Source: an uncultured Chloroflexia bacterium (GTDB lineage: Bacteria > Chloroflexota > Limnocylindria > Limnocylindrales > CSP1-4). Taken from it: a DNA stretch of 64,000 bases. Numbering within the stretch: position 1 is the stretch's first letter; each line of letters begins with the position of its first letter. The position numbers were made by a program, and so were the translations under genes. Location: assembly GCA_963712735.1 (NCBI GenBank), contig CAVQIZ010000003.1, positions 428,855 to 492,854 of the forward strand. The letters run 5' to 3'. The notes below the pieces were generated by a model, which was not told the origin of the DNA, did no database searches, and saw nothing but the letters and a program-made list of their open reading frames with translations. This document shows, in pieces, positions 6,776 to 36,000 of this stretch.

Positions 6776-8745
6776 CTACTCCACGTCGGGCGTGAATTCG
6801 AACGACGACATGAGCCGCTGGAACGTCCGGTCGGGGTTCTTGAAACGGTCGTCGTCGGCCACGCACTGGAGCACATAGAGGACGTCGTGCCTCAGGGCGA
6901 GATCCGAGGACGCTCGGCGCCCCCATTCGGTCGAGTGAACGGACTTCGTTCCTTGGAGCGCTGGTGTCGGGACCCACAGGAGCGTGGGGTCCTCCGGATC
7001 CCAGTACGGCGTCGACACGCCGTCGATGCCCGTGGCGAACCACTGGTTCGGTGCGAGGTCGGTGACGCCGACCGCGACCTTGCAGGCCATGCTCTCGTCG
7101 GTCGTTGACGCGTGAAGCGCCTCCCAGGCCGTCCCCGGTTCGGCGCTATAGACGTCCAGCTCCTTGTCGGCGAGCTCGACTCGCCAGCCTGCCGGGAACC
7201 GCATCGCGAAGCCGGACGCGACGGTCTCGACTCCCCACCGGTCGGTCGGTTCACGGGCCGCCGATGCGGACGGTTCACGGGTCGCCGCAGCCTGGGAAGG
7301 CTCCAGCAAGGCGGCCGGTCCGTGTGGCCAGCCACAGCGCTCCCGCAGGACGAGCTCGGCGACCCCGACGTCGGCTACGCGCGCGAACCTCACCAGGTCC
7401 AGGAGTTGATCACACGTCACGCAGCGGGACAGGTAGACCCGATCCTTCTCTGCATCGCCGGTGGTGGATGACTCCAGGAACGGCTCCTGCAGCACCTCGC
7501 ACCGGAGGCCCGCGGCTGGCCCGCCGGTCTGAGCGGGCAGTCCCGGCAGGATCGCCTCGACGATCGGGCGGTCGGCCTGCAATACCCAGAGCGTGTCTCC
7601 GGTGGGATAGAAGGTGATCGGGTACACGCCCGGCATGGCTGCGTCCTTGACGCGCACGAGCGAGCGATCCTGCACGCGCTCCCAGCTGGCAGTCGGACGC
7701 TCGATCTGCGATGCCATCGCCCCGACGGCCGGGTCGAGCAGGTCGAACATCTCGGCACCAGGATCCGCAAGGCGGCAACGGAAGCGTAGTTGCCCGGGGT
7801 GCGCTCCACCAGGGCCGTGCCGATGGTGATGTCGTCGAGTCGCACTTCAGCCGCATCGGCCAGCGCCTCCAGCCCCCGGATGGCATTCGCATCGGAGTGC
7901 ATCACCGGGTCGAGACGAGCGATCCACTCCCCGCCGGTCCACGTCGCCACCTCGCCGGTCACGCCGTCGAGTGAGCGCAGGACCGTGCCCAGAGGAGCTC
8001 CGGCTGGCGCCGGTGACGGGACGGGCGTGGGCTGGCTGATGGTCGCGGTCGGTGCGGACGGGCCGGACGGCGCAAGGACGTGCAGTGCCCCGTCCTGCCG
8101 TGCCCATACGGTCCCATCAGGACCAAAGCCGATGACTGCGATGTAGGCGGGGCCGGCGATGTAGTCGCGGGTGTCGGTGCCATCGAACGCGGTCAGGACC
8201 GTGCCGGCCAGCCACACGGTGCCGTCGGGTGCGACATCGACCGAGAAGTAGCAGGGGCCGGTCTCGCAGTCGGTGCTGTAGGAGTAGCCCCCCGAGGCAT
8301 CAGCAACGCGCCCCGGTTGGTTGAAGCCCTCCAGCCGGATGCGCCAGCCATCTTCATCCCATGTCCACAGGCGGTCCTCGTTCAGGAGCCACAGCGTGCC
8401 ATCGGGACCAAGCGCCTGGTCGCGGACGCCGAACGTCGGGCTGGGTCCCACGATGGGACAGGAGCCCAGCTCTCGGATGCCACGCAGCGGGTCCAGGAAC
8501 CAGAGACGTCCGTCGCTGGAGACCTCAGCGCCGTCGAAGAAGGGTTGGCGCGGATACGCCTTGCCACAATCCCACGGGGGCTCGTCCACCCGCCAGAGCG
8601 ACGGTGCCACCAGCTCGAAGTCGACGGTGTCGAAGGGATACGGAGGCGGCGCAGGCGTTGCCTCGGATGACTGGGAGAACGCAGGGGTCGCGGCACCGCA
8701 AGCCAGCGCACCCGCCAGCAGCACCGCCATGGTCGGCTGTCGCAT
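6776..8745 (-). CDS. Secreted propeller (DG-x-LW repeats) + linker module + Fam-1 C-terminal module; frame-disrupted near nt ~7755 as assembled
   Basis: ORF 7417..8745 ends ...ALRILVP and continues in another frame in ORF 6776..7750 as MFDLLDPAVGAM... This is colinear with ALRVEGAQAERFADPAISLL of the 10231..12405 protein. The C-terminus ...FQRLMSSFEFTPDVE is Fam-1-like. Signal peptide MRQPTMAVLLAGALACG. Confidence 0.7.
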
Positions 8746-8771
8746 CTGTTCCTCCAGGCTTCGACACGCCC

Positions 8772-8813
8772 ACGCTTCGCCCCCCTGGCCACGACGTCAA
8801 GGGCCGAATGGCC
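8772..8813 (-). promoter_or_regulatory. R-element promoter module only (palindrome + TTGACG-N17-AAGCGT) for the 8745 gene
   Basis: Minus sense: GGCCATTCGGCCC-TTGACG-17 nt-AAGCGT, then a ~25-nt leader with GGAGGA before the ATG at 8745. Confidence 0.5.
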
Positions 8814-8831
8814 ACCAGGGATCGTTGCCCG

Positions 8832-9467
8832 TCAGCGGGTGTGCTGCGAGGGCAGGATCTCGAAGGTCTCGGCGATGGAGAGCCAGTGGTCCGCGGGTCG
8901 CACGGGGCCGGAGCACGTCAGCCGGTACTGGGTGATCCCGTCGGTCATGACGTACTCGGACGTCTCGACATGTTCGGACGGCGCGCTCACCGTGTCCTCG
9001 CTGATGTCGATGCGGGCAGCCGCTCCTGCCGGAAGCGTCAGGTATGTCACCGTCGCCTCAGGTCTGGTGAGATCACCCTCGGCGATCGGCTCAGGCAGGT
9101 CTGCGGCGACGAGGACGTCGAGAGTCAGGCCGTCCGATGGAGTGCTCCTGACGAAGCAGTTGCCACGGCCCGTGTCCATGCCGAGGAGGGTGACGTCGTC
9201 GGGGCGCATCTCCGTGGCCAAGACCACCATCCTCATCGCGAGGTCCTGATCCTTGACCTCAGCTTCGATGAAGGCCGCGAGTGTCCCGGCATCGTCGGTC
9301 GCGGGTCGCAGATAGGCCCAGCCGTCGGGGAGTGTCAGCGCATAGCCCGCCCCCGATACCTCGACCCGCCCACCGAGCCCGAATGGCGCTGGCGACTGTG
9401 CCAGCACGGCGGAGGCGGTGGCGCCGAGCAGGCACGTGACCACCAGCGTGATCATCGGTCGTCGCAT
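8832..9467 (-). CDS. Fam-1 secreted protein (single module)
   Basis: Signal peptide MRRPMITLVVTCLLGATASAVLA; GGRVEVSGAGYALTLPDGW; C-terminal ADHWLSIAETFEILPSQ. GGAGGA RBS before the ATG at 9467. Confidence 0.8.
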   Translation of the reverse strand: MRRPMITLVVTCLLGATASAVLAQSPAPFGLGGRVEVSGAGYALTLPDGWAYLRPATDDAGTLAAFIEAEVKDQDLAMRMVVLATEMRPDDVTLLGMDTGRGNCFVRSTPSDGLTLDVLVAADLPEPIAEGDLTRPEATVTYLTLPAGAAARIDISEDTVSAPSEHVETSEYVMTDGITQYRLTCSGPVRPADHWLSIAETFEILPSQHTR

Positions 9468-9495
9468 GGTCTCGTTCCTCCAAGCCGCTGTCTCG

Positions 9496-9537
9496 ATCGT
9501 CTGCACCTCGCTCCGCGCGTCAAGAGCCCTTCGGCCC
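9496..9537 (-). promoter_or_regulatory. R-element promoter module only (TTGACG-N16-GACGAT) for the 9467 gene
   Basis: Minus sense: GGGCCGAAGGGCTC-TTGACG-16 nt-GACGAT, then a ~28-nt leader with GGAGGA. Confidence 0.55.
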
Positions 9538-9551
9538 GCGGTGCGACTGCG

Positions 9552-10230: not shown

Positions 10231-12405
10231 ATGCGACGGCTCGTTATCAGCATCCTGGCGCTGGCAGTGATCGTCGGCGGGGGGCCGGCCGTGGGCGTGA
10301 GCGGGGAAGCGAAGGCCGAGCGCGGCGCCTTCGAACCGGCAGGCACCATCAAGGGCGGCTTGAGCGGTCACGCGGCAGTGACGCTGCTCGATGGTCGCGT
10401 CCTCATCGCTGGCGGCCTGGGTCGTCGCGGCATCCTCGAGTCGGCACGGGTATGGGATCCTGCCACGGCCACCTCACGGAAGACGGGTCCCCTCGGGGAG
10501 GCGCGCACATCGGCAGCGGGCGTGACACTACCCGACGGGCGCGTCCTGGTCGTCGGTGGCGACGCCCGCGGCGGGCTCGTGCGCACCGCCGAGCTCTGGG
10601 ACCCGCAAAGCGGCACCTTCTCGCCCGCCGGCGAGCTCGAGGAGGCTCGGTTCAAGGCCGATGCCATCGCCCTCGCCGATGGTCGGGTGGCCGTCATCGG
10701 TGGCTCGGGTCCCGGGGAGGTGACCAGCATCGAGGTCTGGGATCCGGAGGCCGCAGCATTCCACACGGCGGGCGTCCTGCCGGAGTCCCGTGAGGACCAC
10801 GCTAGCGTGCTACTCCCTGACGGGCGGGTGCTCATCACCGGTGGCGAATCGGAGCGCGGCCCCCTGGACTCGGCGCTCCTCTGGGATCCAGCCACTGGCG
10901 ATGTCAGCGGGGCCGGCACGATGCTGGTCGACCGCTACGATCACACCAGCACCCTGCTCCCCGACGGGCGCGTCATCATCATCGGCGGCTGGACCGAGCG
11001 ATCGACCGTCGTGACCGCCGATGCCGAGATCTGGGAACCCGCGACCAGCATCTTCGTGACCGCGGGCTCGATGGCTGTGCCGCGGGCCTCGCATAGCGCG
11101 ACGCCGCTGCCCGACGGACGTGTCCTCGTGGTCGGTGGCGCTGGCAACTACGGCCGATACCCGGTCGCGGGCGAGGTCTGGGATCCCGAGCTGGGCCACT
11201 TCGCGCTCTCTGGGCCACTGACCTTCGGACGGGAGGGCCACACCGCGAGCCTCCTGCTGGACGGGCGTGTCTTGGTCGTCGGCGGCCGAGCCCTCCCCCC
11301 TGCGGGCGTCAAGTCGCCTGAGCTTCTCGAGGTCTGGGATCCAGAGGCCTTCCCCGAGATCCCCGCCCCACCGGCATCCCTCGACTTGGCGGTGTGTGCC
11401 TCTGACGGTGCGGAGCCCGGCACCGCGACACTGCTCGAGCGGTTCCCAGCCGAGCTCGAGGGCGCGCCCATCGCATCATCGGCTTGTGAGGGACCCGCTT
11501 GGCTGGCACCGCAGGACCGGGGCACGGTCACCACCGTCGAGCGTGCCGAGGCCCTGGTCGATTCGGTCGGGCGATCGATCGACGACCTGACCGTCGCAAC
11601 AGCTCTGCACGAGCGCGAGCCCGGCCGGATCGCGACGATCACCGCGCTCCGTGTGGAGGGTGCGCAGGCGGAACGATTTGCCGACCCGGCGATCTCGCTG
11701 CTGCTCGGCATCGAGCGACCCGACAAGCGCTACCGCTACCTCGGGCAGGATCGGATCCCTGTGACCAGGGTCCGGGACGAGACCGTCCCGGGCTCGCAGC
11801 CGGTGACGATGTACGCCCCCGTGGGCGACACGCTCTGGTTCGTGACGGCCGACGAGCCCGAGCTCCTGGAGCGCATCATCCGGTCCCTGCCGGGACCGGG
11901 CGGGCGCTTCGAGGTGCCGGAGCTCGGTATCGCCGTTACGTTCCCACAGGAGTGGATCGTCTCTCCGCTCTGGCCCGCCGGCACGCCCGAGGGCAACGAG
12001 GCGCGTCACGTGGGCCTTGAAGCCCTTGTCTGGCCCGTCGCGGTCGGACGCACACCGGGCACCAAGGGGTCGGACGAGACCTGTGGCCTGAGCCTGTTCA
12101 CGTCGATGGACATCACGCCCAAGAGATACCTCGAGGAACTCCAGCCAGACCGCCCCGGGCTGGAACGACCCGTGCCAGAGGTCCTCGACGGTGGGCTGCT
12201 GCGCCTCGCAGGATCGGGCAGCTTGCTCGGTGACAGCGGCGACACGGCCATCTACGTCCTCGGCTCGCACGACGCCATGGCGGTGCTCCGGTGCTCGGCT
12301 CCGGAAGCTCCTTCCGACCACTGGCTTTCGTTGGCCAGGACGATCGAGTTGCTGCCAGCCGCGGAGTCGAGCCCGCGCGCCCTCGTCACACTCCGGTTGC
12401 GGTGA
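10231..12405 (+). CDS. Secreted Kelch-repeat protein fused to linker module and Fam-1 C-terminal module
   Basis: Signal peptide MRRLVISILALAVIVGG. About 8 repeats of LPDGRVLV(V/I)GG...AE(L/I/V)WDP. Later VGRSIDDLTVATALHE...ALRVEG, then GIAVTFPQEW ... SDHWLSLARTIELLPAAE. GGAAGGGGG RBS. Confidence 0.85.
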   Translation: MRRLVISILALAVIVGGGPAVGVSGEAKAERGAFEPAGTIKGGLSGHAAVTLLDGRVLIAGGLGRRGILESARVWDPATATSRKTGPLGEARTSAAGVTLPDGRVLVVGGDARGGLVRTAELWDPQSGTFSPAGELEEARFKADAIALADGRVAVIGGSGPGEVTSIEVWDPEAAAFHTAGVLPESREDHASVLLPDGRVLITGGESERGPLDSALLWDPATGDVSGAGTMLVDRYDHTSTLLPDGRVIIIGGWTERSTVVTADAEIWEPATSIFVTAGSMAVPRASHSATPLPDGRVLVVGGAGNYGRYPVAGEVWDPELGHFALSGPLTFGREGHTASLLLDGRVLVVGGRALPPAGVKSPELLEVWDPEAFPEIPAPPASLDLAVCASDGAEPGTATLLERFPAELEGAPIASSACEGPAWLAPQDRGTVTTVERAEALVDSVGRSIDDLTVATALHEREPGRIATITALRVEGAQAERFADPAISLLLGIERPDKRYRYLGQDRIPVTRVRDETVPGSQPVTMYAPVGDTLWFVTADEPELLERIIRSLPGPGGRFEVPELGIAVTFPQEWIVSPLWPAGTPEGNEARHVGLEALVWPVAVGRTPGTKGSDETCGLSLFTSMDITPKRYLEELQPDRPGLERPVPEVLDGGLLRLAGSGSLLGDSGDTAIYVLGSHDAMAVLRCSAPEAPSDHWLSLARTIELLPAAESSPRALVTLRLR

Positions 12406-12706
12406 GGTGCTGCCAACGGCCTGTGTGCGGATGGCCACGGCTACTCCCCGAGTGGCAGGACCTCGTCGAACCGGACTGCGGGCACCCCGCCGATCTCCAG
12501 GTGGGCATCGCTTCGTTCGAGAGCGGCAGCCCGGTCATGCCCATCCATGTCGTACAGCCACAGGTCGGAGAAGGGCGCTGATCGGACCGATGCCGAGCTC
12601 GGCGAAGGCCCGGCCCGGCTGCGTCGCCACGGAGTCGCAGCCCGGACAATGTCGCTGAGCAACAACCACGCCGGCTGCCCTGCCGGACGACCGCGCGAGA
12701 ATCATC

Positions 12707-12784
12707 GGTAGCGGGAGGCGATGAGGTGCGGCCCACACCCTGGCCGCCGGGACCGTGTCCGAGCCACTGGCGAATCCGGCCCGA
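12707..12784 (+). repeat. R-element, inverted (B-type) variant upstream of a Fam-2 gene
   Basis: GGTAGCGGGAGGCGATGAGGTGCGGCCCACACCCTGGCCGCCGGGACCGTGTCCGAGCCACTGGCGAATCCGGCCCG. Preceded by GAGAAT (-10-like) at 12697-12702. Confidence 0.6.
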
Positions 12785-12803
12785 CGATACGAAGGGGGAG
12801 GTC

Positions 12804-13352
12804 GTGCGGAGATGGCAGCTGGCGCTGGCAGGAGGCGCTGCCTTGGGGCTGATCGGGGTGCTGGCCGTTGCGGCAGCAGCGCAGGAACCGATACTCGACC
12901 CACGCGTTACGCTGGTGACAGGGACGGTAACCGGGACGACCACCGACCCTTCCGACGAGGAGTGGTGGGTCGAGGATGCCATCGGCCATGCGCGGGTCTT
13001 CAAGGTCAGCGACGCCGTGGAGTGGAGCGACCCTCGACTGGGGGTCGGTGTCCTGTGGAGCCTGAACTTCGACATGTACGAGATCTCGGTGTCCAAGCAG
13101 ATGCCGTTCACCGGGACCCTGTGGCTCCATGGTCCGGACGGTCACTGGACCGGCACGTCCACCGGGTTCTGCGACCCTGTCGGTGAGTGCACCTCGATGA
13201 TCGTCCTGACCGGACATGACGGCTACGACGGTATGTTCGCGACCATCCTCAACACGGGAAACTCTGAAACGAGCGAGTCCCGCTACGAGGGGATGATCTT
13301 CGAGGGCGAGATGCCGCCGATGCCCGACCAAGTCGAGCCGTCCGCCGATTAA
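12804..13352 (+). CDS. Fam-2 secreted protein
   Basis: GTG start after an AAGGGGGAGG RBS. Signal peptide VRRWQLALAGGAALGLIGVLAVAAAAQ. WSDPRLGVG, LTGHDGYDGMFA, YEGMIFEGEMPPMP. Confidence 0.75.
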   Translation: MRRWQLALAGGAALGLIGVLAVAAAAQEPILDPRVTLVTGTVTGTTTDPSDEEWWVEDAIGHARVFKVSDAVEWSDPRLGVGVLWSLNFDMYEISVSKQMPFTGTLWLHGPDGHWTGTSTGFCDPVGECTSMIVLTGHDGYDGMFATILNTGNSETSESRYEGMIFEGEMPPMPDQVEPSAD

Positions 13353-13452: not shown

Positions 13453-14067
13453 TCAGGCCTCGACCGACACGCCCACTTCTCCTGGCACGAACTCCAAGGT
13501 CTCCGCTATCGGGATCCAGCGATCCTCTGGCGGGCTCATCGAGCCACACATCAGCAGGAGCCACCGGTCGCCGTCAGTCACCAGGTAGCCGCGCCACACC
13601 CAGCCGTCATCATGCAGTGCGTCGCAAACGACAGAGCTGCCACCAGGGAGCTCGAGACGCCGGGTCTCGACCGACACGACCCTTGGGTCATCGTCGAGCG
13701 TATTGACGAAGTCTTGCGCCTGGTCGCTCAACAGCACGTAGATGCTGCACTGTTCGTGGCCCGCGTCCGTCATAGCCGGCTTTCGGGCGAGGAGCACGCC
13801 GCCGCTCTCGATGAACTCGATGTGCTGTTGGGCGGGCGCTCCGTGGATAGGATTCCACCAACCCTCGTCGAAGACGGCAGCATCGGCGTATTCCCAGTTC
13901 TTGGGGAGGCTCACGGCGAAGCCGTCCGCCGGGCGTTCGATGCGTTGGGGACCAAAGATCGGGACGCCCGACGCGAGGGCCGAGATGAGTCCCGCTACGA
14001 AGACCAGCACGACGAGGATCGCGAAGAACCGCGTCGTGCTCGACCTGATCAGGCCAACCTGGCGCAT
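13453..14067 (-). CDS. Fam-1 protein with N-terminal membrane anchor
   Basis: TRFFAILVVLVFVAGLISALA anchor; DGFAVSLPKNW; C-terminal EDRWIPIAETLEFVPGE. Confidence 0.8.
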   Translation of the reverse strand: MRQVGLIRSSTTRFFAILVVLVFVAGLISALASGVPIFGPQRIERPADGFAVSLPKNWEYADAAVFDEGWWNPIHGAPAQQHIEFIESGGVLLARKPAMTDAGHEQCSIYVLLSDQAQDFVNTLDDDPRVVSVETRRLELPGGSSVVCDALHDDGWVWRGYLVTDGDRWLLLMCGSMSPPEDRWIPIAETLEFVPGEVGVSVEA

Positions 14068-15225: not shown

Positions 15226-15323
15226 ATCCTCCGCGCCCTGGTCAGCGGGTCAAGGGCCGGACGGCCCGGCAGTGCGGTCGTCAATGGCCGCGACGACCAA
15301 GCCAAATCCGCTATCCATGGCGG
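15226..15323 (-). repeat. R-element full copy with TTGACC-N16-GAGGAT
   Basis: AGCGGGTCAAGGGCCGGACGGCCCGGC...CAATGGCCGCGACGACCAAGCCAAATCCGCTATCCATGGCG. GGTCAA at 15248-15253 and ATCCTC at 15226-15231 (plus strand). Confidence 0.75.
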
Positions 15324-15536: not shown

Positions 15537-15620
15537 TCGACCCATCCGACCATCGTGGGAACGGTCATGCGCCCTATCGCGGGGCGCTCGGTCGCCATCA
15601 TGCGATCAGGGGGTGCGGGA

Positions 15621-19071: not shown

Positions 19072-19098
19072 GTGACGTTCCTTGCTGCGGATGCTTCC

Positions 19099-19287
19099 AT
19101 GCTTTCCCACCCGAGCGCCTGGTCAAGAGCCGTCTGGCCTACGGCCGGTACGTCGTCCACGAGGTCGCGGACGACCCGTGCGTGCTCGTGTCGGGCGATC
19201 TCGAGGCGCTCGCCTGGCAGCCAGGCCGAGTTCGCGCGAACGCCGCCAGGGCGGCGACGTCTAGACCGAACCCCCGATCCATGGTGG
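19099..19287 (-). repeat. R-element copy split by a ~95-nt insertion; TTGACC-N16-AAGCAT
   Basis: GGTCAAGAGCCGTCTGGCCTACGGCC at 19121-19146, and CGCCAGGGCGGCGACGTCTAGACCGAACCCCCGATCCATGGTGG at ~19242-19286. Confidence 0.55.
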
Positions 19288-21915: not shown

Positions 21916-22012
21916 ATCCTCCGCGTCCCGCTCAGCGGGTCAAGGGCCGGACGGCCCGGCGCCGTGGCGGCGCCATGGCGGCGACGACCAGACATCACTC
22001 GCTATTCATGCC
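21916..22012 (-). repeat. R-element full copy with TTGACC-N16-GAGGAT
   Basis: CCCGCTCAGCGGGTCAAGGGCCGGACGGCCCGGCGCCGTGGCGGCGCCATGGCGGCGACGACCAGACATCACTCGCTATTCATG. The stop codon of the 22002..23246 gene lies inside it. Confidence 0.8.
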
Positions 22013-23246
22013 GGTCCGGACCTGAGTTCTTGCCAAGGGCGGAGTACCTGGGCTTCTCCTCTCTGGGCAGGAACTCGAAGGTCTCGGCGATGGAGAGCCA
22101 GTCGTCACGCCTTGCCATTTGATCGACACCCTCGACCGGGATGCCCTCCACGCAGCTCAGGGTGATGAGTCGATGGCCGTCGAGGAAGACGAATTCGGAG
22201 CCGAACGATGTCGGCGACCACTGGACGTCGTGGCGCGCAGCTTGACCGGCAGGGAGGTCGATCCGCGCCCATGTCTGCGTCGGGTCGTCCTCGAAGTACT
22301 CCGAGTTCAGCTCGACCAGTTGCCTGATCGAGGTCACAGCTGACTCTTGGACCCACGCCTCGCAGTGTTGTCGGTTGCGAGGCCCCTCCTCCGCCAGTGA
22401 CGCCCAGAACACCATCTCGTGGCCTATCGCCATCCGGTCATCGAACAGTGCTCCGAGGGAACCCTCCAAGGCAGCACCGAGCCAGGAGCCGGTCGTCGGC
22501 ATCGACTCCAACAGCTGGATGAGGTCGGGGTGTGTCAGATCGGCAGCGATCCAGCCATCGGGCACCTCGAGGGCGAAACCAGGATCGGCGAGCTCGATCC
22601 GACCCCCGATCACGACAGGGCCGGGGGTCGCCGGCAGGAACTCGAAGGTCTTGGCGATGGAGAGCCAATCGTCTTCAGGACGGTCGCGCGAGCCGCAGCC
22701 GAGCACGTACCACGAATCCGGACTGACGAGGTAGTAGGTCCGAGAGTACAGACCGTCCTCGGCCAGGCGGCCTGTGTATGCGGCTTGGCCAGGCGGGACG
22801 TCGACGTAACCGCTGTCGATATCCACCGTCGTGGGGTCGATCCCGTATGCCTCGAGATCACCAGCGACGGCATCCTCGAGCGAGACCCAGGCTCGGTTGG
22901 CCTGATAGCTACGCGTGACATCCATGATGACGCACACCTGTCCTTCTCCTGCGGAGTAGGCCAACAACAGGACGTCCGTGCCATCTGGTACGCGATGGTC
23001 CGGCTCTTGAACTACCGACTCCGCCTCGCGTGTCGGCTGCCGGACGGTCCAGTCGTCGGGGAAGGTGACCGCGAAGCCTTCGGCTGCTTGCACGATGCGG
23101 CCCGCTTCGATGGCCGGGCCGAGGCCGGTCATGGCGGTGCGAGTATCGGTCTCGTCGGGTGCGTACATCGTCGGCTCCGCCGAGCCTTGGTCGCAAGACC
23201 CCACCGACGTGAGCGCAATCCCCAACAGGACCGCTGGCCTCGACAC
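22002..23246 (-). CDS. Fam-1 lipoprotein-like protein with two tandem modules
   Basis: GTG start, MSRPAVLLGIALTSVGSC. EGFAVTFPDDW...DDWLSIAKTFEFLPATPG, then GGRIELADPGFALEVPDGW...RDDWLSIAETFEFLPREE. Confidence 0.8.
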   Translation of the reverse strand: MSRPAVLLGIALTSVGSCDQGSAEPTMYAPDETDTRTAMTGLGPAIEAGRIVQAAEGFAVTFPDDWTVRQPTREAESVVQEPDHRVPDGTDVLLLAYSAGEGQVCVIMDVTRSYQANRAWVSLEDAVAGDLEAYGIDPTTVDIDSGYVDVPPGQAAYTGRLAEDGLYSRTYYLVSPDSWYVLGCGSRDRPEDDWLSIAKTFEFLPATPGPVVIGGRIELADPGFALEVPDGWIAADLTHPDLIQLLESMPTTGSWLGAALEGSLGALFDDRMAIGHEMVFWASLAEEGPRNRQHCEAWVQESAVTSIRQLVELNSEYFEDDPTQTWARIDLPAGQAARHDVQWSPTSFGSEFVFLDGHRLITLSCVEGIPVEGVDQMARRDDWLSIAETFEFLPREEKPRYSALGKNSGPDRHE

Positions 23247-24602: not shown

Positions 24603-24626
24603 GATCGTTCTCCGGTGCGTATCGCC

Positions 24627-24728
24627 ATCGTTGGCGCGTCGCGTCAAGCCGGTCAAGTGACGGATGGCCCACGCCGCGTGCGCCTCGCCCCGGCGGCGAC
24701 GACCAGACCAAACCCGCCATTCATGGCG
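24627..24728 (-). repeat. R-element copy with duplicated -35 (TTGACC/TTGACG) and AACGAT
   Basis: GCGTCAAGCCGGTCAAGTGACGGATGGCCC...CGGCGGCGACGACCAGACCAAACCCGCCATTCATGGCG, followed by GCCGCTGGCGAATGGC (B-type-like motif). Confidence 0.7.
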
Positions 24729-28411: not shown

Positions 28412-28789
28412 TCATGACCAACGGACAGCGACCGCGCACGCAACGAGTGGGCCGACCAGCAGGTAGGTCGAGTAGAACAGCCCTGACGCCACACGTGCGC
28501 CGAGGTGGTGTTTGTCGTGGAACTCGAGGATGCTGAAGAACAGGATCACCGTCGCAAGCCAGCCCAGGAGCGTGCCCACCACCAGCACCACCGGCAAGGC
28601 GAACAGGTTCCACTCGGCAAGGGCGATGACGACTCCGGCGATGGCAGCGACCACGCCGGCCGGGAACCAGCCGATGAACCGCACGACCTGGGTCGAACCG
28701 CCGTCGTCGAGGACGGTGAAGCATGCAGGACAGAGCCGGTCGCCGTGCTCGGTCCGTACTCCGCAATTCAGGCAGCGCGCTGAACGCAT
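28412..28789 (-). CDS. Zn-ribbon (CxxC...CxxC) membrane protein, paralog of 34786..35163
   Basis: MRSARCLNCGVRTEHGDRLCPACF followed by 3-4 hydrophobic helices. Near-identical paralog at 34786. Confidence 0.7.
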   Translation of the reverse strand: MRSARCLNCGVRTEHGDRLCPACFTVLDDGGSTQVVRFIGWFPAGVVAAIAGVVIALAEWNLFALPVVLVVGTLLGWLATVILFFSILEFHDKHHLGARVASGLFYSTYLLVGPLVACAVAVRWS

Positions 28790-28820
28790 GATGAGCTTCT
28801 CGGTATCTCGTGCCGGGACT

Positions 28821-28918
28821 ACGGTCCCGCACCCCATTCATTGGGTCAAGAGCTGGAAGGCATAACGGCTGCCGTCACCATGGCGGCGACGACCAGACCA
28901 AACCCGCTACTCATGGCG
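28821..28918 (-). repeat. R-element full copy with TTGACC-N17-GACCGT
   Basis: GGGTCAAGAGCTGGAAGGCATAACGGCTGCCGTCACCATGGCGGCGACGACCAGACCAAACCCGCTACTCATGGCG. Confidence 0.8.
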
Positions 28919-28925: not shown

Positions 28926-29535
28926 CTAGCCTTCGGTGGGCAGGAACTCGAAGGACTCGGCGATCGCCAGCCACAAGTCGTCGCGACGGGTAGCAGCCAC
29001 GCAGTCCATGAGGTAGTACCAGCCACGGTGTAGCCACTCGAAGGTGGCGTCCTCCTCGGAGCCCGCCGGTCCCTGGGACAGGAACGAGCGTAGTGCATTC
29101 CCAGAGGGCAGAACGATCGGCTCACGACGGACGGCGGCGTAGTACTCCTCGTCCGACTCCTTCCGCATCACCGCAAGGTCCGCCAAGGTCATCTCGTCGC
29201 ATGGCCACGTATCGACGTAGACGTTGTTGCGCCAGTCAGCTGGGTCGCCCGCGAGAAGAGCCGTGGTCATCTGTTGACCGGCTATCACCGACCGCGACTC
29301 GTCGTCGAATTGCTCCATCGCCTCGGCAAGGTCGGGATGCCAGAAGATCGAAGGCGATCCAGTCGTCGGGCACCGAGAGGCCGAAGCCTGCTGGATGGAC
29401 GTGGATGCGCCCGCCAACGACGATGGGAGCATCCGCCTCGCTGTCGGGTGACGGTGTGTCCCACGCCTGGTCGCCGGAGGCGCTGCGGTCGAGCCAGTCG
29501 CCGAACTCCCCAAGGAACGGAGATGGGTGATGCAT
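28926..29535 (-). CDS. Fam-1 protein, frame-disrupted at ~29340 as assembled
   Basis: GGRIHVHPAGFGLSVPDDWIAFDL (ORF 29236..29571) continues in ORF 28926..29636 as HPDLAEAMEQFDDES...DDLWLAIAESFEFLPTEG. Removing one G of CTGGCA restores AFDLLHPDLAEA. Confidence 0.65.
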
Positions 29536-29562
29536 GTCATCCCCTTCGCGTGGCCATCTCTC

Positions 29563-29654
29563 AGTCTCCACGCCACTCTCCAGCGGGTCAAGGGCCGGAC
29601 GGCCGCCCCTGTGCCATGGCGGCGACGACCAGACATAACCCGCTACTCGTGGCG
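29563..29654 (-). repeat. R-element full copy with TTGACC-N17-GAGACT
   Basis: CAGCGGGTCAAGGGCCGGACGGCCGCCCCTGTGCCATGGCGGCGACGACCAGACATAACCCGCTACTCGTGGCG. Confidence 0.8.
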
Positions 29655-29705
29655 GTGCTCAAGCACCAACAGCGAGCACGATGGACGGCGGCGGGACAAT
29701 GGTAC

Positions 29706-29782
29706 GTAGCGGGAGGCAGCGAAACGCGGTCCACACCATGGCCGCCGGGACCGCGCCGAGCCACTGGCGAACCCGGCCCGCC
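29706..29782 (+). repeat. R-element, inverted (B-type) variant upstream of a Fam-2 gene
   Basis: GTAGCGGGAGGCAGCGAAACGCGGTCCACACCATGGCCGCCGGGACCGCGCCGAGCCACTGGCGAACCCGGCCCGCC. GACAAT (-10-like) lies just upstream. Confidence 0.65.
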
Positions 29783-29804
29783 TACAGGCCGAGGAGGCTT
29801 GTCC

Positions 29805-30347
29805 ATGCGCACGTCGCGATCGTTCCTCGTGGGGTTGGGCGCTCTCAGTCTGGTTGCCAGCCTGTCTTTGGCGGTGGTGGCGCAAGACGAAGAGGAGCTG
29901 GAGCCACCCACGGCCACCTTCGTTACGGGGGTCGCGGTCTCCAAACTAGAGGATGTCGACTTCGCCGGGTGGGAGATGGAGTGGAGCGACCCGCGTCTGC
30001 CGTCGCGGGCGCAGTACCGGTTCAGCGCGGAGACAGGGCGGAGCGATCATCCCGACGGGACCGTCATGGCCGCGCAGATGGTGGCGGTGGTGCGGCTCGA
30101 CGGTCCTGATGGCGGCTGGTCCGGGACCGACTGGATCCTGGCATGGACATTGGAACCTGAACCGGGTGAGAAGGGTCGGGACACGTGGATCGAGGTGTTG
30201 ATGCTGGATGGTGACGGCGACTACGAGGGCCTCTCGGCCACGCTCACGAACACCGGCCGTGGAGGTTCCCCCGGCCCCTACGAAGGCTTCATCTTCGAGG
30301 GCGAGTTGCCGCGCATGCCGGACCGGATCGAACCGAACTCCGAGTAG
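29805..30347 (+). CDS. Fam-2 secreted protein
   Basis: MRTSRSFLVGLGALSLVASLSLAVVAQ; WSDPRLPSR; GDGDYEGLSA; YEGFIFEGELPRMP; GAGGAGG RBS. Confidence 0.75.
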   Translation: MRTSRSFLVGLGALSLVASLSLAVVAQDEEELEPPTATFVTGVAVSKLEDVDFAGWEMEWSDPRLPSRAQYRFSAETGRSDHPDGTVMAAQMVAVVRLDGPDGGWSGTDWILAWTLEPEPGEKGRDTWIEVLMLDGDGDYEGLSATLTNTGRGGSPGPYEGFIFEGELPRMPDRIEPNSE

Positions 30348-30471: not shown

Positions 30472-31056
30472 CTACTCCTGCTCCTCGGGCAGGAACTCGA
30501 TGGTCTGGGCGATCGACAGCCAGTCATCGTCGGGCGCTTCGTCGAGGCTCGTACACCAGAGCCAGACGCAGCCGGGATCCCTCGCGATGACGAACACGGA
30601 ATGGAACACGTCCCGGCCCTGGTGCCGCGTGCGCTGGATGAGGTGGGACGCATGGCCAGCGGGCACGTCCATCTCGATGACACCGAAGCTGTCGTCAGGC
30701 AGGAGGAGGATCGCGAGCGAGAAGGCGACGTCGCGGGTGGTCAGCGGGAGAGGTTGCCATCGGGGTGTGAGGTCGAACGGCCCCAGGTCGCAGTGTTCTT
30801 GTCGCTGCTCATACGCCGGAGCGATCCCACGCGCCAGCACGGGGAAGATCGGGATGGCCGGCCCCTGCATCCGTCCCGCGCGTGTCCTCGGGAGTGCCTC
30901 GGGTGTGACGAGGACCTCCCAGTCGACTGGATACGTCTCCGCGACGTCAGCCCATGGCATCTCGATCCGCTGCCCTGTGGCCGTCGTGACGGGCTCGGGT
31001 GACTCTGCGGCAGCGGCGACGGCATCGGCCGCCGACAGTGCCACCACCACCAGCAT
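30472..31056 (-). CDS. Fam-1 secreted protein; start uncertain
   Basis: MLVVVALSAADAVAAAA...; C-terminal PDDDWLSIAQTIEFLPEEQE. The upstream portion of the 242-aa ORF is translated R-element. Confidence 0.7.
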   Translation of the reverse strand: MLVVVALSAADAVAAAAESPEPVTTATGQRIEMPWADVAETYPVDWEVLVTPEALPRTRAGRMQGPAIPIFPVLARGIAPAYEQRQEHCDLGPFDLTPRWQPLPLTTRDVAFSLAILLLPDDSFGVIEMDVPAGHASHLIQRTRHQGRDVFHSVFVIARDPGCVWLWCTSLDEAPDDDWLSIAQTIEFLPEEQE

Positions 31057-31560: not shown

Positions 31561-32640
31561 CTATTCTTCCGGCAGGAACTCGAAGGACTCGGCGATGGAC
31601 AGCCACTCCTCACGATGGGACAGCACGCCGGTGCACCAGAGCAAGGCGACGGCGTCGCCCCCACCGATGGCGTAGTGCTCGACGTAGACAGCGCCCGGGC
31701 TGTCGGTGCGGATGCGCCCCGTCATGAACTGGTTCATGAAGACCCGGCTCAGCCCTTCGTGGAGTGGCTCGACGATCAGATCCTCTGACTGCCCGAAGAT
31801 CTCGTTCAAGAACTCGTCGGCGGTGAGCTCGATCGGCGCGGATTTCACGAGCGTGCAGAGGTTCGGCGTGTCGCGCTCGCGTCCCTCGGGCCCCCATGCG
31901 ACGAGTAGGTTCTGCAGCACGACGTCGGGTCCGAAGCGTTCCGGCCCAGACAGGATGAGGATGGCCGTGTCGGAGTCTTCCTCGACGATCTCGATGTCCC
32001 AGTCCTCTGGGGGCGTCACCGCGTAGCCGGGTTCGCGAACCTCGCTCCGCCGACTGGACTCCGGTGGGGAGGAGGGACCCGTCGTCTCGTCGGGCAACCG
32101 CCCTGGCTCGGCGGGCAGGAGCTCGATGGACTCGGCGATGGTGTACCACAGCCGCCCAGCGTAGGCATCGGTCGTGCTGCAGGTCAGCCAGGCGTACCCG
32201 TCGTCGGCCGCGAAGATGTACGTGTCGCTGGTGCCGGCCTGTCCTTGCTTGGGCAGGTCGGGCGCGTACAGGCGCACCGCTTCTCCTGCCGGCAGTTCCG
32301 CCGCGGGGGCGATCTGGGCCTGGCGATAGCCGCGGATGCTACTCAGCGTGGAAGCGATCTCCTCTGGTCGCACACCGTCGAACTGGAACGTCTCCACGAT
32401 GCATCGCCCCGCACCGCCCACCTCGCGAGCGACCAGCACACGGTCGAAGATCGGGAGGCCCTGCTCTCCCGTCGTGACCCGCCAGCCAGCGGGGACGGTC
32501 AGGGCGAGCCCGTGGTCGGGAAACTCGAACCGCTGGTCCTCGGCAATCGGGCTGGGCCTCGGTCGCTGCGCGATGGCCGACGCGCCAGTCACGACCACGA
32601 CGGCGCAGACCAACAGCGCAGAGACAGCTAGACGAACCAT
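31561..32640 (-). CDS. Fam-1 secreted protein with two tandem modules
   Basis: MVRLAVSALLVCAVVVVTGASA. HGLALTVPAGW...RLWYTIAESIELLPAEPG, then PGYAVTPPEDW...REEWLSIAESFEFLPEE. The ATG at 32640 follows GGGGGG, and the upstream ATG overlaps the -10. Confidence 0.8.
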   Translation of the reverse strand: MVRLAVSALLVCAVVVVTGASAIAQRPRPSPIAEDQRFEFPDHGLALTVPAGWRVTTGEQGLPIFDRVLVAREVGGAGRCIVETFQFDGVRPEEIASTLSSIRGYRQAQIAPAAELPAGEAVRLYAPDLPKQGQAGTSDTYIFAADDGYAWLTCSTTDAYAGRLWYTIAESIELLPAEPGRLPDETTGPSSPPESSRRSEVREPGYAVTPPEDWDIEIVEEDSDTAILILSGPERFGPDVVLQNLLVAWGPEGRERDTPNLCTLVKSAPIELTADEFLNEIFGQSEDLIVEPLHEGLSRVFMNQFMTGRIRTDSPGAVYVEHYAIGGGDAVALLWCTGVLSHREEWLSIAESFEFLPEE

Positions 32641-32665: not shown

Positions 32666-32750
32666 ATCCTCCGTGATCTGGTCAGGGGGTCAAGGGCCGG
32701 ACGGCCCGCGCCCTGGCGGCGACGACCAGACCATCCGCAATGCCTGGCGG
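32666..32750 (-). repeat. R-element copy with TTGACC-N16-GAGGAT
   Basis: GGGGGTCAAGGGCCGGACGGCCCGCGCCCTGGCGGCGACGACCAGACCATCCGCAATGCCTGGCGG. Confidence 0.75.
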
Positions 32751-32965
32751 TTCTGGGGCACCGTGACCGCGAAACCGTACTCAGGCATCTCCACCCCATC
32801 ACCGGCCGCGTCGTCAGAGGCGCCGGCAGGCCTGGCCACGATGATCATCAACGCGATGACGACACCGACGGCGACGGTGACCGCGATGACCAGGCGACCC
32901 GTCTTGCTCAGTCCCCATCTCGGAGGGGGGTCTCCGGGGTGGGTGAACCTCCAGCCTTGTGGCAT
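32690..32965 (-). pseudogene. Membrane-anchored Fam-1 remnant truncated by the R-element
   Basis: MPQGW...GRLVIAVTVAVGVVIALMIIVA...EMPEYGFAVTVPQN opens a Fam-1 module (GFAVTVP). It then runs into repeat sequence and stops at the TGA of the repeat's TTGACC. Confidence 0.4.
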
Positions 32966-33068: not shown

Positions 33069-33192
33069 ATGCTGGAACGGTCCTGGGGAGTGACTTGACG
33101 CGGCCACTAGCCTTGTGGCTCGCGCCGGTCCGGCAGGCAGCAGAAGGCTTGTCCGTCCCCGGATGCACCGCGAGGGCAAAGGAGCATCTTTC

Positions 33193-33759
33193 ATGCGGCC
33201 GATTGAAACCACTGTCGTTTCCATCCTTGCGCTCGGCTTGCTGGCAGGGTCGGCGATCGGGGTCGCGGCGCAGGACGAGGAAGCGCCGGCTGGCGTCACC
33301 AGCTTCACGGGCTCCTTCAGCACGGACGCTGAATGGCCCGATGTGGCAACCGAGACCGAACTCCCGAACGGCTTCTCCGAAACGACCGGTCACGTGAGAC
33401 TGAACAGCTGGGTGTCGAGCGACCCTCGCCTCACCGGGGACGTCGCCACCGTCGTCAACTGGGTCCTCGACCCGGACGGCTTCAGCGCGATGGAGACGGG
33501 TCGCCAGCCCAACATGCTCAACGCGTCCATCACCGAGCTGACCAACGACGGGGGGAGCTGGCTCGGCGAGGGCGTCAGCATGAGCAGCACCGACCTCGAC
33601 GTCGCCACCGACAGCATCATCCTCGTCGGCCGGGACGGATACGAAGGCCTGACGGCCTACGTCCTCGTCGACGGCCGTGAATGGCCGCCCACGTACAGCG
33701 GCGTCATCTTCCCGTCCGCTATGCCCGACGTCCCTGAGGAGCCGTACGCGGGCGAGTAG
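33193..33759 (+). CDS. Fam-2 secreted protein
   Basis: MRPIETTVVSILALGLLAGSAIGVAAQ; SSDPRLTGD; GRDGYEGLTA; YSGVIFPSAMPDVP; AAAGGAG RBS. Confidence 0.75.
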   Translation: MRPIETTVVSILALGLLAGSAIGVAAQDEEAPAGVTSFTGSFSTDAEWPDVATETELPNGFSETTGHVRLNSWVSSDPRLTGDVATVVNWVLDPDGFSAMETGRQPNMLNASITELTNDGGSWLGEGVSMSSTDLDVATDSIILVGRDGYEGLTAYVLVDGREWPPTYSGVIFPSAMPDVPEEPYAGE

Positions 33760-33827: not shown

Positions 33828-33863
33828 TTCTGGGCCACCGCCATCGCGTGGTTGGACACCCGC

Positions 33864-33906
33864 GCGAGAATCTGCATAGCGGGAGGCGATGTCGCGCGGC
33901 CCGCGC
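33864..33906 (+). repeat. R-element B-type variant, truncated
   Basis: GCGAGAATCTGCATAGCGGGAGGCGATGTCGCGCGGCCCGCGC. Shares GAGAAT..TAGCGGGAGGCGATG..GCGCGGCCC with 12697-12735 and 2361-2392. Confidence 0.5.
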
Positions 33907-33921
33907 AGCAGGGGGGAAGTC

Positions 33922-34659
33922 ATGCGAAGACTGTCGATCGCGGGAGCCGTCGTGCTGATGTGCCTAATGCTCGGTGGGATGCCGGCGCTGGCGCAGGAGA
34001 CCGCAGACGAAGCGCCAGCCGGACCGGCCATCGTCACCGGCACCGCGGTGTGTGACGAGTTCACGCCGAATCTCTGGTCCGAGACTGCCTGGGGTGGCTA
34101 CGAGCGTGACGATGGCGCCTGGTGCAACGTAGCAGCGAGTGACCCTCGCGTCAGCGGCGACTTCTTCAACACCTACAACGTGGATTGCTATGGGGTGGAG
34201 CCGGATCAGGCGTTCTGCATCTTCCGCGGGGCCTACGTGTTCGATGCGCCGGACGGCGGCTGGGATTGCACGTGGACAGGATCCGACCTGCCGGTGGAGG
34301 AGACCGGCCTGCTCATCACCGGTATCTGCCACGGCACCGGTGGCTACGAGGAACTGACGCACGTCTACCAGCACACCGATGTCGGGTCGTTCGCGGACGG
34401 CAGCAACTACCGCGCCGCCATCTACGAGGGCGAGCCGGTGCCGTTCTCCGAGGTCATCACCGACCCCGTCGCGGTCGTGATCGCGGGCCGGGACGCCGTG
34501 GCCGGCTACATCGTGCTGCCAGCCCTGCAGTACGTGCCGGGGGCGGAGGTCGGCCCCGATGTCTTCACCGACCCCGGCGAACTCAGGGGGCGCAAGGCCG
34601 CGGTGGACATCCCCGCGGGCACACCTATCACGCCCGACCTGCTGGAACCCGCCGAGTAG
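33922..34659 (+). CDS. Fam-2 secreted protein with a SAF-like C-terminal extension
   Basis: MRRLSIAGAVVLMCLMLGGMPALA; ASDPRVSGD; GTGGYEELTH; IYEGEPVPF. Then ...RKAAVDIPAGTPITPDLL is reminiscent of SAF/CpaB-type domains. Confidence 0.7.
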   Translation: MRRLSIAGAVVLMCLMLGGMPALAQETADEAPAGPAIVTGTAVCDEFTPNLWSETAWGGYERDDGAWCNVAASDPRVSGDFFNTYNVDCYGVEPDQAFCIFRGAYVFDAPDGGWDCTWTGSDLPVEETGLLITGICHGTGGYEELTHVYQHTDVGSFADGSNYRAAIYEGEPVPFSEVITDPVAVVIAGRDAVAGYIVLPALQYVPGAEVGPDVFTDPGELRGRKAAVDIPAGTPITPDLLEPAE

Positions 34660-34727
34660 CCCGATAGGCCGCCTCGGCTGCCTGCGCCATGGCGGCGGCG
34701 ACCAGACATGACCCGCTGTACATGGCG
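34660..34727 (-). repeat. R-element partial copy (distal half) between convergent genes
   Basis: CCCGATAGGCCGCCTCGGCTGCCTGCGCCATGGCGGCGGCGACCAGACATGACCCGCTGTACATGGCG. Confidence 0.6.
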
Positions 34728-34785
34728 ATCCCGGCCTGTCCTACTCAGCCGCTACTCCGGTGAGCGCCGGAGCGCCTTCGCGTGC

Positions 34786-35163
34786 TCAAGACCACCGGAT
34801 CGCGACCACGCATGCGACGAGTGGACCGACCAGCAGATATGTGGAGAAGTACAGCCCTGACGCCACGCCTGCACCGAGGTGGTGGTGGGCGTGGAACTCG
34901 AGAAGCCCGAAGAACAGGGCCATGGTGGCGACCCAGCCCAGGAACGTGCCCACCGCCAGCACGATCGGCAGGGCCAACAAGTCCCACTCCGCAAGGGCGA
35001 CGATGACTCCGGCGATGGCGGCAACCACGCCAGCCGGGAACCATCCGATGAACAACACGGCCTGCGTCGAACCGCCGTCGTCGAGGACGGTGAAGCATGC
35101 GCGACAGAGCCGTTCGCCGTACTCCACTCGTGCGCCGCAATTCAGGCAGTGCGCTGAACGCAT
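34786..35163 (-). CDS. Zn-ribbon membrane protein, paralog of 28412..28789
   Basis: MRSAHCLNCGARVEYGERLCRACF plus hydrophobic helices. The 5' leader is also conserved at nucleotide level with the paralog. Confidence 0.7.
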   Translation of the reverse strand: MRSAHCLNCGARVEYGERLCRACFTVLDDGGSTQAVLFIGWFPAGVVAAIAGVIVALAEWDLLALPIVLAVGTFLGWVATMALFFGLLEFHAHHHLGAGVASGLYFSTYLLVGPLVACVVAIRWS

Positions 35164-35194
35164 GATGAGCTTCTCGGTATCTCGTGCCGGGACC

Positions 35195-35284
35195 ACGGTC
35201 CCGCGCACCGGTCAGCGGGTCAAGGGCCGGACGGCCCAGCGGCCACGGCGATGACGACCAGACCAAACCCTCTATACATGGTGG
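35195..35284 (-). repeat. R-element full copy with TTGACC-N17-GACCGT
   Basis: GTCAGCGGGTCAAGGGCCGGACGGCCCAGCGGCCACGGCGATGACGACCAGACCAAACCCTCTATACATGGTGG. Confidence 0.8.
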
Positions 35285-35316
35285 TTCTGGAGTGGCCTCC
35301 AGTGGCTCGCGCCCGG

Positions 35317-36000
35317 CTACTCCTCGGCGGGCAGGAACTCGATGGACTCGGCGATGGCGAGCCAGCGGTCGGCGTGGCGCGTCGCGTCCATGCAGGTCAG
35401 CGAGTAGCCGCGGCCATCGTGCAACAGGAGGTAGACGGTCCTCGCGAGTTCGCCACCCCCGGGGTAGGGCGTCGCATACTCGACCATGCCTGCCCGCCCG
35501 GACGGCAGGTCGACGAAGACGGGCACGGGGTCGGCGGTCGAGTCCACCATGGTCCGCATCGTCAGCAGCTGGGCCGCCACCATGAGGTCGAGTGACGCCG
35601 TGGCTATCGGTTCGACGGCCATGTTGCAGTTCTCGCCGGCGGTCGGCCCATCGAGCGGTGCGAGTGCGATGAGGGGCAGCTCGACGAGCGGATACGCCGC
35701 CGCCAGGTCCGGCGCCACGCTCTCGACGCTGAAGGAGGCCATCGTCGGCGCCAGCGCCGCGGTCAGTTCATCGAAGGACTCCATCGCCGCGCCGAGGCCC
35801 GGGTCCAGGAGGTCGAAGGCGTACCAGCCCTCGGGCACGGTGAGCGCGAAGCCCGCTGAGGGGACCTCGATACGGCCCCCGAGGACGACCGGCCCCGCGT
35901 GCGTTCCGACCTCGGGTGTCGGCGATTGCGCCGTGACAGCGGAGCCACCACCGATGCCCATCAGGCTCAGGACCAGGAACACCACCGTCAGTCGCCGCAT
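35317..36000 (-). CDS. Fam-1 secreted protein (single module)
   Basis: MRRLTVVFLVLSLMGIGGGSAVTA; GGRIEVPSAGFALTVPEGWYAFDLLDPG; C-terminal HADRWLAIAESIEFLPAEE. Confidence 0.8.
   Translation of the reverse strand: MRRLTVVFLVLSLMGIGGGSAVTAQSPTPEVGTHAGPVVLGGRIEVPSAGFALTVPEGWYAFDLLDPGLGAAMESFDELTAALAPTMASFSVESVAPDLAAAYPLVELPLIALAPLDGPTAGENCNMAVEPIATASLDLMVAAQLLTMRTMVDSTADPVPVFVDLPSGRAGMVEYATPYPGGGELARTVYLLLHDGRGYSLTCMDATRHADRWLAIAESIEFLPAEE

Follow-up and report, generated by a model that had tools for sequence, protein, structure and literature searches.

The question raised by this locus is what is held constant, and by what, in a set of exported protein domains that nearly all end in the same tail, D-x-W-L-S-I-A-E-T-F-E-F-L-P-x-E-E. 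The domains, here termed Fam-1, are encoded in a 64,000-nucleotide stretch (the window) of contig CAVQIZ010000003.1 from an uncultured Chloroflexia bacterium, and genes are referred to below by their first coordinate in it. Fam-1 is a new family of known fold which, according to predicted models, falls structurally within the Mog1p/PsbP-like superfamily. The explanation favored here, to which a probability of about 0.7 was assigned as a whole, is that Fam-1 comprises unannotated, lineage-restricted, Sec-exported or membrane-anchored domains of ~150 to 200 residues from soil Chloroflexota close to Limnocylindria. They would be binding modules in which a fixed PsbP-fold framework, tail included, carries a variable surface, the genes turning over as cassettes. 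The binding role is suggested by the fold and by the domain fusions described below.

The tail was located by a six-frame scan of the whole window with the pattern W[LIVYF][STAP][ILV]A.[ST][FILV]E[FILV][LVIT]P. The strict form W-[LIY]-x-[IL]-A-x-[ST]-x-E-x-[LV]-P was found in 10 modules, and a degenerate tail, FQRLMSSFEFTP, was found in gene 6776 at about 6788-6823. The pattern matched nowhere at positions 1-6700 and 36001-64000 of the window in six frames, nor across 200 shuffles of the window, and a chance origin of the matches is excluded. A hidden Markov model (HMM) of the module, run against all six-frame open reading frames (ORFs), returned the same 10 modules (domain E-values of 1e-27 to 1e-52), the 6776 module (E = 3e-17), and an N-terminal fragment at 32732-32803 that sits in a gene stump. 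All Fam-1 modules are confined to 6.8-36 kb of the window, and the eleven modules show 20-44% identity to the 35317 module, which served as the alignment reference. The initial annotation had put the total at eleven modules and one remnant, spread over ten genes, and the HMM scan confirmed this count. Its N-terminal motif GGR(I/V)E(V/L)xxxG(F/Y)A(L/V)x(V/F/L)PxxW and two Cys were likewise present in the modules, and its description of a secreted, expanded family was correct.

Conservation was assessed on an alignment of 179 modules from public data with <50% mutual identity, in which five blocks were conserved: the N-terminal hairpin, a Cys, LPaGxAxR, Y...LxC, and the tail. The first block, GGRvEvPxaGFAvtfPxdW, retained its R in 90%, its P in 97%, and its W in 98% of modules. 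Of the two Cys, C140 (within Y...LxC) was conserved in 99% and C66 in 83%. The tail block, PxDxWLSIAETFEFLPaEE, was the longest of the five, and the stretch from the hairpin to the first Cys was variable in both length and sequence. The earlier statement that only the last ~15 residues are conserved was therefore wrong, as the hairpin, the Cys, LPxGxAxR, and Y..LxC are conserved as well.

An N-terminal hydrophobic segment was present in 8/8 window genes with a readable N terminus (6776/7417 included, 28926 left out) and in 153/182 family members, 15 of these 153 being N-in-anchor-like and 21 having a lipobox-like motif. A word-indexed protein search yielded 40 relatives, none with a Pfam domain and one named as a protein of a Candidatus Limnocylindrales metagenome-assembled genome (MAG). 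An exhaustive HMMER scan of 1.84 billion representatives gave 797 clusters at E ≤0.001 and 429 at ≤1e-10, and many of the proteins found hold two to five Fam-1 modules. When 185,579 species genomes were searched with a degenerate DNA pattern derived from the tail, 20 sites matched, 20/20 of them in Chloroflexota MAGs, and a full-text literature search with the tail peptide returned no papers. Fusions were seen in some family members, to a C-terminal Kelch domain, to an N-terminal SecDF P1 head, or to DUF805 and TPR domains. A fold and a probable cellular location can thus be given to ~800 clusters (at 50% identity) that sequence searches of Pfam, NCBIfam, and the PDB all missed. In abundant uncultured soil Chloroflexota, Fam-1 appears to account for much of the exported proteome.

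The fold was predicted with AlphaFold2 for the 35317 module from a 44-sequence alignment, with a predicted local distance difference test score (pLDDT) of 94.3 and a predicted template modeling score (pTM) of 0.90. The model proceeds from the hairpin through helices and six further strands, one helix lying between the second and third of these, to a helix at 173-181 (ADRWLAIAE) and ends in a bridge or short strand at 184-185 (EF). In a Foldseek comparison with the PDB, the top match of this model was CyanoP (2xb3; E = 2e-6; template modeling [TM] scores of 0.53/0.63). Further matches were plant PsbP, M. tuberculosis Apa, SciW, EagT6, 3lyd, BT_1490, DcrB, Tsi3, MTC28, LpqN, and Mog1, and all those listed had a probability of 1.0 at 8-17% identity. 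The 8832 module, 29% identical to that of 35317, was predicted with a pLDDT of 83.8 and gave the same topology and the same match list, with a best E-value of 1e-5 and a probability of 1.0 against PsbP/CyanoP. The Mog1p/PsbP-like fold is defined as an alpha-beta-alpha sandwich whose central sheet is antiparallel, with a beta-hairpin at the N terminus and, packed against the sheet, a helix at the C terminus; both models show this order of secondary-structure elements. Since the two models share topology and matches, the tail is placed as the terminal helix and strand of this predicted sandwich. The guess of a PsbP/Mog1/DUF1795-like fold in the initial annotation, where Foldseek runs on models of these two genes had been proposed, was right on the evidence of both models.

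Several results weigh against this fold assignment. The Foldseek TM scores were moderate (0.5-0.65), and sequence searches gave little: none of 69 family members matched a consistent Pfam family, NCBIfam returned nothing above the cut-off for the window proteins and the 69 members, and hmmsearch against the PDB with the window modules and the 69 members gave chance matches only. The only NCBIfam signal was TIGR03931 (T7SS_Rv3446c) on the hairpin, at E-values of 5e-4 to 5e-3, below the cut-off. With hhalign, run against a single PsbP sequence (96% identity to that of Solanum) and a profile of 20 plant PsbP sequences, the alignment was confined to the hairpin (E = 0.05). As the template profile is too shallow (Neff of 1.8), the hhalign result does not count against homology. 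A subthreshold PF01789 (PsbP) match was obtained for 1/10 window proteins, the tail of 6776 aligning over positions 106-155, the end of the 155-position profile, at 18.1 bits against a gathering threshold of 23.5 (E = 0.0028). Since the 23.5-bit cut-off was applied and was reached by none of the window proteins and 69 members, Fam-1 is not a member of PF01789. The DcrB/DUF1795 and Lpp-LpqN Pfam families gave no significant match in the same set, and Fam-1 lies outside the other curated families as well. The Pfam scan that had been suggested as a check thus assigned the modules to no characterised family.

Comparison with known proteins of this fold separates what Fam-1 shares from what is its own. 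PsbP and CyanoP (PF01789; 2xb3, 1v2b, 2lnj) were the best structural matches of both models (TM scores of 0.5-0.63), and the hairpin signature G-F-x-x-x-(V/F)-P-x-x-W is common to Fam-1 and PsbP. The single PsbP sequence used with hhalign ends in a Trp-containing 21-residue stretch, which we take to be a C-terminal helix and a short final strand. However, identity to these proteins is 10-15%, the window has no photosystem context, and Fam-1 differs from PsbP in its longer variable helical insert, its two conserved Cys, its tandem and fused architectures, and its far more conserved tail. The PsbP-fold proteins of Actinomycetota (Apa/Rv1860, 5zx9; LpqN, 6e5d; MTC28, 4pws; the Jonesia protein 3lyd) have the same fold. 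Apa, LpqN, MTC28, and their like carry Sec signals or lipoprotein anchors and are binding or adaptor proteins in the cell envelope outside the cytoplasmic membrane. Unlike Fam-1, the Actinomycetota proteins are single copy and form no cassette arrays; they lack the conserved D-x-W-L-S-I-A-E-T-F-E-F-L-P-x-E-E tail and have no detectable sequence similarity to Fam-1. The DcrB/DUF1795 Eag chaperones (6e8a, 6xrb, 6xrr, 6xrf, 1tu1) share the sandwich core over about 100-130 aligned columns at a probability of 1.0. They are, however, cytoplasmic dimers of about 145 residues that hold the transmembrane helices of type VI secretion system (T6SS) effectors, whereas Fam-1 proteins are exported and longer and the window has no T6SS genes.

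In the explanation favored here, the conserved elements would make up the framework of the Mog1p/PsbP-like alpha-beta-alpha sandwich, namely the N-terminal hairpin (GGRvEvPxxGFAvtfPxdW), the two Cys, each on its own strand, the LPaGxAxR and Y...LxC strands, and the tail. A disulfide is presumed to join the two Cys. The tail would supply a terminal short helix (D-x-W-L-S-I-A-E) and the last beta-strand (F-E-F-L-P), with W, I, A, F, F, and L probably facing the sheet. Sequence and length are both variable in the loops and in the helical insert that follows the hairpin. Each module could be a constant scaffold presenting a variable binding surface outside the cell, used alone, in tandem, or joined to protein-interaction domains (Kelch, TPR, SecD P1 head). 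The family would diversify as gene cassettes arise, die out, and are shuffled in an island that differs between strains. A second constraint would act on the free P-x-E-E-COOH end, for example because it docks to a shared partner or is shielded from tail-specific proteases.

The substitutions tolerated in the tail are consistent with this assignment. Across the 179 modules, I153, A154, F157, F159, and L160 were replaced only by hydrophobic residues, L151 tolerated R and Q, and position 156 was T or S in 171/179. This pattern fits an amphipathic, half-buried helix followed by a strand, the burial being suggested by the substitutions themselves. The internal modules of tandem proteins also retain the tail, and the notion of an appended sorting tag was abandoned, since the tail appears as an integral helix and strand that is conserved inside tandem proteins too. 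A sortase LPXTG or PEP-CTERM-type signal was considered and rejected as well, no transmembrane helix or basic tail following the motif and the motif occurring internally.

The Fam-1 genes lie in an island (6.7-36.1 kb) of mostly orphan exported proteins with housekeeping genes on both sides: an ABC-F ATPase, a luciferase-like enzyme, and a PD40 propeller protein on the left, and an extracytoplasmic function (ECF) sigma/anti-sigma pair, the his operon, PBP1, MutS2, and ThrRS on the right. A ~115-nucleotide composite element occurs in about 20 copies at 8795-36137 and nowhere else in the window. It occupies nearly every intergenic space from 15 to 36 kb, with degenerate copies back to about 8.8 kb, and every copy points the same way. 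The well-formed ones start at 15248, 19876, 21938, 23295, 24651, 25364, 26931, 28844, 29586, 31457, 32688, 32994, 35218, and 36052. On the plus strand, part B reads GGTCAAGGGCCGGACGGCCC and part A reads CCATGGCGGCGACGACCAGAC.. (also given as CCATGGCGGCGACGACCAGACC...). In the sense of the minus-strand genes, part A (ACCGCCATGAATAGCGGGTTTGGTCTGGTCGTCGCCGCCATGGCG) follows the stop codon at a distance of 5 to about 50 nucleotides, and part B, the palindrome GGGCCGTCCGGCCC and then a TTGACC box that is nearly invariant on this strand, precedes the next gene. The copy at 35194..35294 lies between island genes, and synteny with a related strain ends inside it. The rightmost copy, at 36025..36137 just upstream of gene 35317-36000, forms the right edge of the island. 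The element had no match in Rfam even at E ≤1, a consensus scan found no canonical sigma-70 promoter in it, and RNAalifold found no compensatory pairs, the sequence rather than the pairing being conserved. Its layout suggests a terminator-plus-promoter or operator unit.

In 16/20 loci from related MAGs (probably long-read soil MAGs), Fam-1 genes are flanked by this element, nearly always in the same relative orientation. The related assembly L021 is 98.5% identical to window positions 43369-35239 and then diverges inside part A of the element, beyond which it carries different Fam-1 genes together with the same elements and an IS110 transposase (12441-13631 of L021). A second locus, L022, shares cassettes with the window at 85-93% nucleotide identity (76% for a copy of the second family, Fam-2, described below) in a different order, its blocks matching window positions 21915-20901, 32756-31457, 33068-32756, 20669-20049, 15326-14143, and 10093-9192. 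An IS110-family transposase also lies in the L022 array (1287-2147). Reordering of this kind, together with the stump and the two frameshifted genes in the window, signifies rapid evolution. The initial annotation had proposed following the ratio of nonsynonymous to synonymous substitution rates (dN/dS) along the module. Pairwise values for two ortholog pairs were 0.64 and 0.42, which is high, though low divergence inflates such values, and a sliding window over these pairs was too noisy for site-level claims.

The island resembles integron or recombinase-associated immunity arrays in its short, mostly orphan genes, mostly on one strand, with ~115-nucleotide repeats between them and an order that varies between strains. 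An integron cassette array was nevertheless rejected. The element has neither the RYYYAAC/GTTRRRY core boxes of attC sites nor conserved pairing, and no integrase or tyrosine recombinase was found in the 64-kb window, where all island ORFs of at least 300 residues and chosen large flanking ORFs gave no Pfam hit to a recombinase. With its TTGACC box the element looks more like a terminator-plus-promoter unit. An array that combines repeated elements with reshuffling between strains may show how such repertoires arise.

Packing into the sandwich does not account for everything seen in the tail, and three further explanations were weighed beside the favored one. The initial annotation had suggested that the tail is a shared interaction, sorting, or quality-control motif and that a tail forming just the buried last helix of a common fold would contradict this. 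A helix and strand of such a fold were indeed predicted, but constraint beyond packing was seen as well: the tail is conserved more strongly than folding alone explains. Tail identity was 0.77 in terminal modules and 0.58 in internal ones, as opposed to 0.65 and 0.60 for the other blocks, and terminal tails agreed with the consensus at 10.3/12 positions against 8.0/12 for internal tails. Most family proteins end 3-4 residues after L-P with an acidic end. Of 144 terminal modules, 93 (65%) end exactly at P-x-E-E, four residues after the 11-mer, and 33 of those 93 read PAEE, whereas internal tails run into varied linkers. The polar residues D148, S152, E155, and E158 (92%) are conserved too, and the tail acids showed no salt-bridge covariation with R6 or R110 among the conserved charged columns. 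The pLDDT of the last ten residues was 89 at the consensus end of 35317 and 57 at the nonconsensus end of 8832. These data would agree with the free end ...FEFLP-x-E-E-COOH being a family-wide recognition signal, for envelope docking, sorting, or anchoring or for control by an extracytoplasmic tail-specific or PDZ protease, by analogy with the C-terminal beta-signal of outer-membrane proteins. That beta-signal doubles as a structural strand and as a signal for assembly, and the proposal is similarly compatible with a structural role for the tail. We hold it as a tentative possibility. The motif is confidently predicted as part of the fold and is retained inside tandem proteins, it is not of the sortase/exosortase type, no candidate sorting enzyme, protease, or chaperone adjoins the Fam-1 genes in the window, and relaxed selection on upstream tandem modules could give the same contrast between terminal and internal tails. 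That contrast nonetheless offers a built-in control for the question of whether the C terminus is a signal.

The excess conservation extends to codons. When identical residues were compared among paralogs <50% identical, the same codon was used in 71% of cases in the tail, in 50% in the N-terminal block, and in 47% elsewhere, the last figure being that of random draws from codon usage. The skews were position specific: L11 was CTG in 94-100%, S3 was TCC in 65-82%, and P12 was CCC in 58-84%, with 84% in terminal tails (significant) and 58% in internal ones (not significant). A5 and, in part, L11 and T7 (ACC) were explained by codon context, which left S3 and P12 unaccounted for. The skew may reflect nucleotide selection, recombination, or local codon preference. 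Part of the tail's invariance could then reside in the DNA, the 3' coding end acting as an anchor for recombination or gene conversion or overlapping a nucleotide signal. The reordered cassettes fit with this, as does the synteny break at 35239, which lies about 80 nucleotides beyond a tail. We regard this proposal as unlikely, however. Window tails differ at nonsynonymous and synonymous sites and therefore have not been homogenised recently, and the same consensus recurs across many MAGs. The distance from stop codon to element varies, and internal tails, which lie far from the intergenic element, show the skew too. The codon data came from the window tails and loci L001-L023, of which L001-L020 were retrieved by a tail-derived DNA pattern, though its third codon positions were free and the skew was also seen in loci not chosen by that pattern. 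A different alternative turns on the array rather than the tail and takes the modules for orphan proteins of the immunity type, directed against secreted toxins that attack the envelope and gathered in a defence island that varies between strains. They would be comparable to Tsi3-like immunity proteins and to the acquired interbacterial defence arrays of Bacteroidales. The Foldseek matches include the T6SS immunity protein Tsi3 and PA3488 (in complex with the phospholipase PldA), and the proteins are exported, diverse paralogs in a strain-variable array with a high dN/dS and with IS110 transposases nearby in related contigs. PsbP, CyanoP, and Apa ranked above Tsi3, however, and the window has no toxin, T6SS, type VII secretion system, or polymorphic-toxin gene. 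Kelch, TPR, and SecD P1 fusions and tandem modules are atypical of immunity proteins, and PADLOC, which models anti-phage systems only, gave no match for ten island proteins. This alternative appears quite improbable. A broader conjecture, which we consider doubtful, starts from the free P-x-E-E end, the surplus conservation of terminal tails, and the codon skew, and makes the tail the handle of a lineage-specific system. It would be either a docking or assembly signal for a large and variable repertoire of PsbP-fold binding modules on a Limnocylindria-type envelope or a nucleotide anchor for cassette exchange in an array that has repeated elements but lacks an integrase.

Within the favored explanation of exported PsbP-fold binding modules, the individual window genes show the range of architectures. 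Single modules are encoded on the minus strand by 8832..9467 (an exported protein; module at 8844-9389, tail at 8850-8885), 13453..14067 (membrane anchored; module at 13474-13962, tail at 13483-13518), 30472..31056 (identical to P0002; module at 30478-30984, tail at 30487-30522), and 35317..36000 (exported, identical to P0003; module at 35323-35892, tail at 35329-35364). The single-module gene 28926..29571, also on the minus strand (module at 28935-29427, tail at 28938-28973), is frameshifted at about 29338. Two tandem modules are encoded by each of two further minus-strand genes. In 22002..23246, a lipobox-like protein whose reading frame extends into the repeat element downstream, they lie at 22617-23114 and 22038-22616 (tails at 22632-22667 and 22065-22100). 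In 31561..32640, whose product is 90% identical to its ortholog P0001, they lie at 32086-32547 and 31567-32064 (tails at 32113-32148 and 31570-31605). The plus-strand gene 10231..12405 encodes a signal peptide, a Kelch propeller, a middle domain, and a Fam-1 module (11893-12378, tail at 12322-12357). ORFs 7417-8745 and 6776-7750 are deduced to be halves of one gene with a frameshift near 7757, because the middle domain of the 10231 protein matches both the C terminus of ORF 7417 (E = 1e-7) and the N terminus of ORF 6776 (E = 3e-10). The joined minus-strand gene, 6776..8745, encodes a signal peptide, an N-terminal repeat domain, the middle domain, and the degenerate module (6785-7234). The two frameshifts, which affect 2/10 Fam-1 genes, may be true breaks or assembly errors. 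Fusion of modules behind Kelch or propeller domains, as initially described, held for 10231, where Pfam identified Kelch, and the supposed propeller of 7417 had no Pfam hit. The stump at 32732..32965 (minus strand), truncated by the repeat element, retains an N-terminal cytoplasmic segment, a transmembrane anchor, and the first hairpin (GDGVEMPEYGFAVTVPQN; HMM positions 9-32, domain E = 1e-4).

Other features of the island were recorded alongside these genes. Three secreted Kelch-propeller proteins are present, 10231-12405 (plus), 15555-17699 (plus), and 25490-26647 (minus), and their C-terminal parts differ: one has the middle domain and Fam-1, one has a Cys-rich part of ~330 residues without a Pfam match, and one has none. 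A stand-alone lipoprotein with a SecD/SecDF P1 head domain is encoded inside the island at 18313-19110 (minus); in P0058, a public Fam-1 member, such a head precedes the Fam-1 module. Two minus-strand paralog pairs were noted, 20736-21899 with 23451-24650 (exported, about 390 residues, no Pfam hit) and 28412-28837 with 34786-35208 (small zinc-ribbon membrane proteins, 82% identical in DNA over 300 nucleotides).

A second expanded family, Fam-2, is encoded on the plus strand at 12726-13352, about 29790-30347, 33115-33759, 33889-34659, 36928-37719, and 20113-20667. Its shared domain had no Pfam hit, and the copy at 33889-34659 carries a C-terminal SAF domain. A tail like Y-x-G-x-I-F-x-G-E-(M/L)-P-x-(M/V)-P-(D/E) was present in 5/6 copies and absent from that at 20113-20667, and one copy is the outer domain of a putative anti-sigma factor adjoining the ECF sigma gene 36302-36931. 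The c-di-GMP-II-GAG riboswitch (RF03169) was matched on the plus strand at 2362-2449, 12705-12790, and 29703-29787 with 58.2, 44.2, and 58.5 bits, respectively, against a gathering threshold of 40. All three matches immediately precede genes for exported proteins, two of which are Fam-2 genes. Finally, a 689-residue ORF at 43634-45703 (plus) combines a HisC-like aminotransferase with an imidazoleglycerol-phosphate dehydratase, representing either a fusion or two genes read together.

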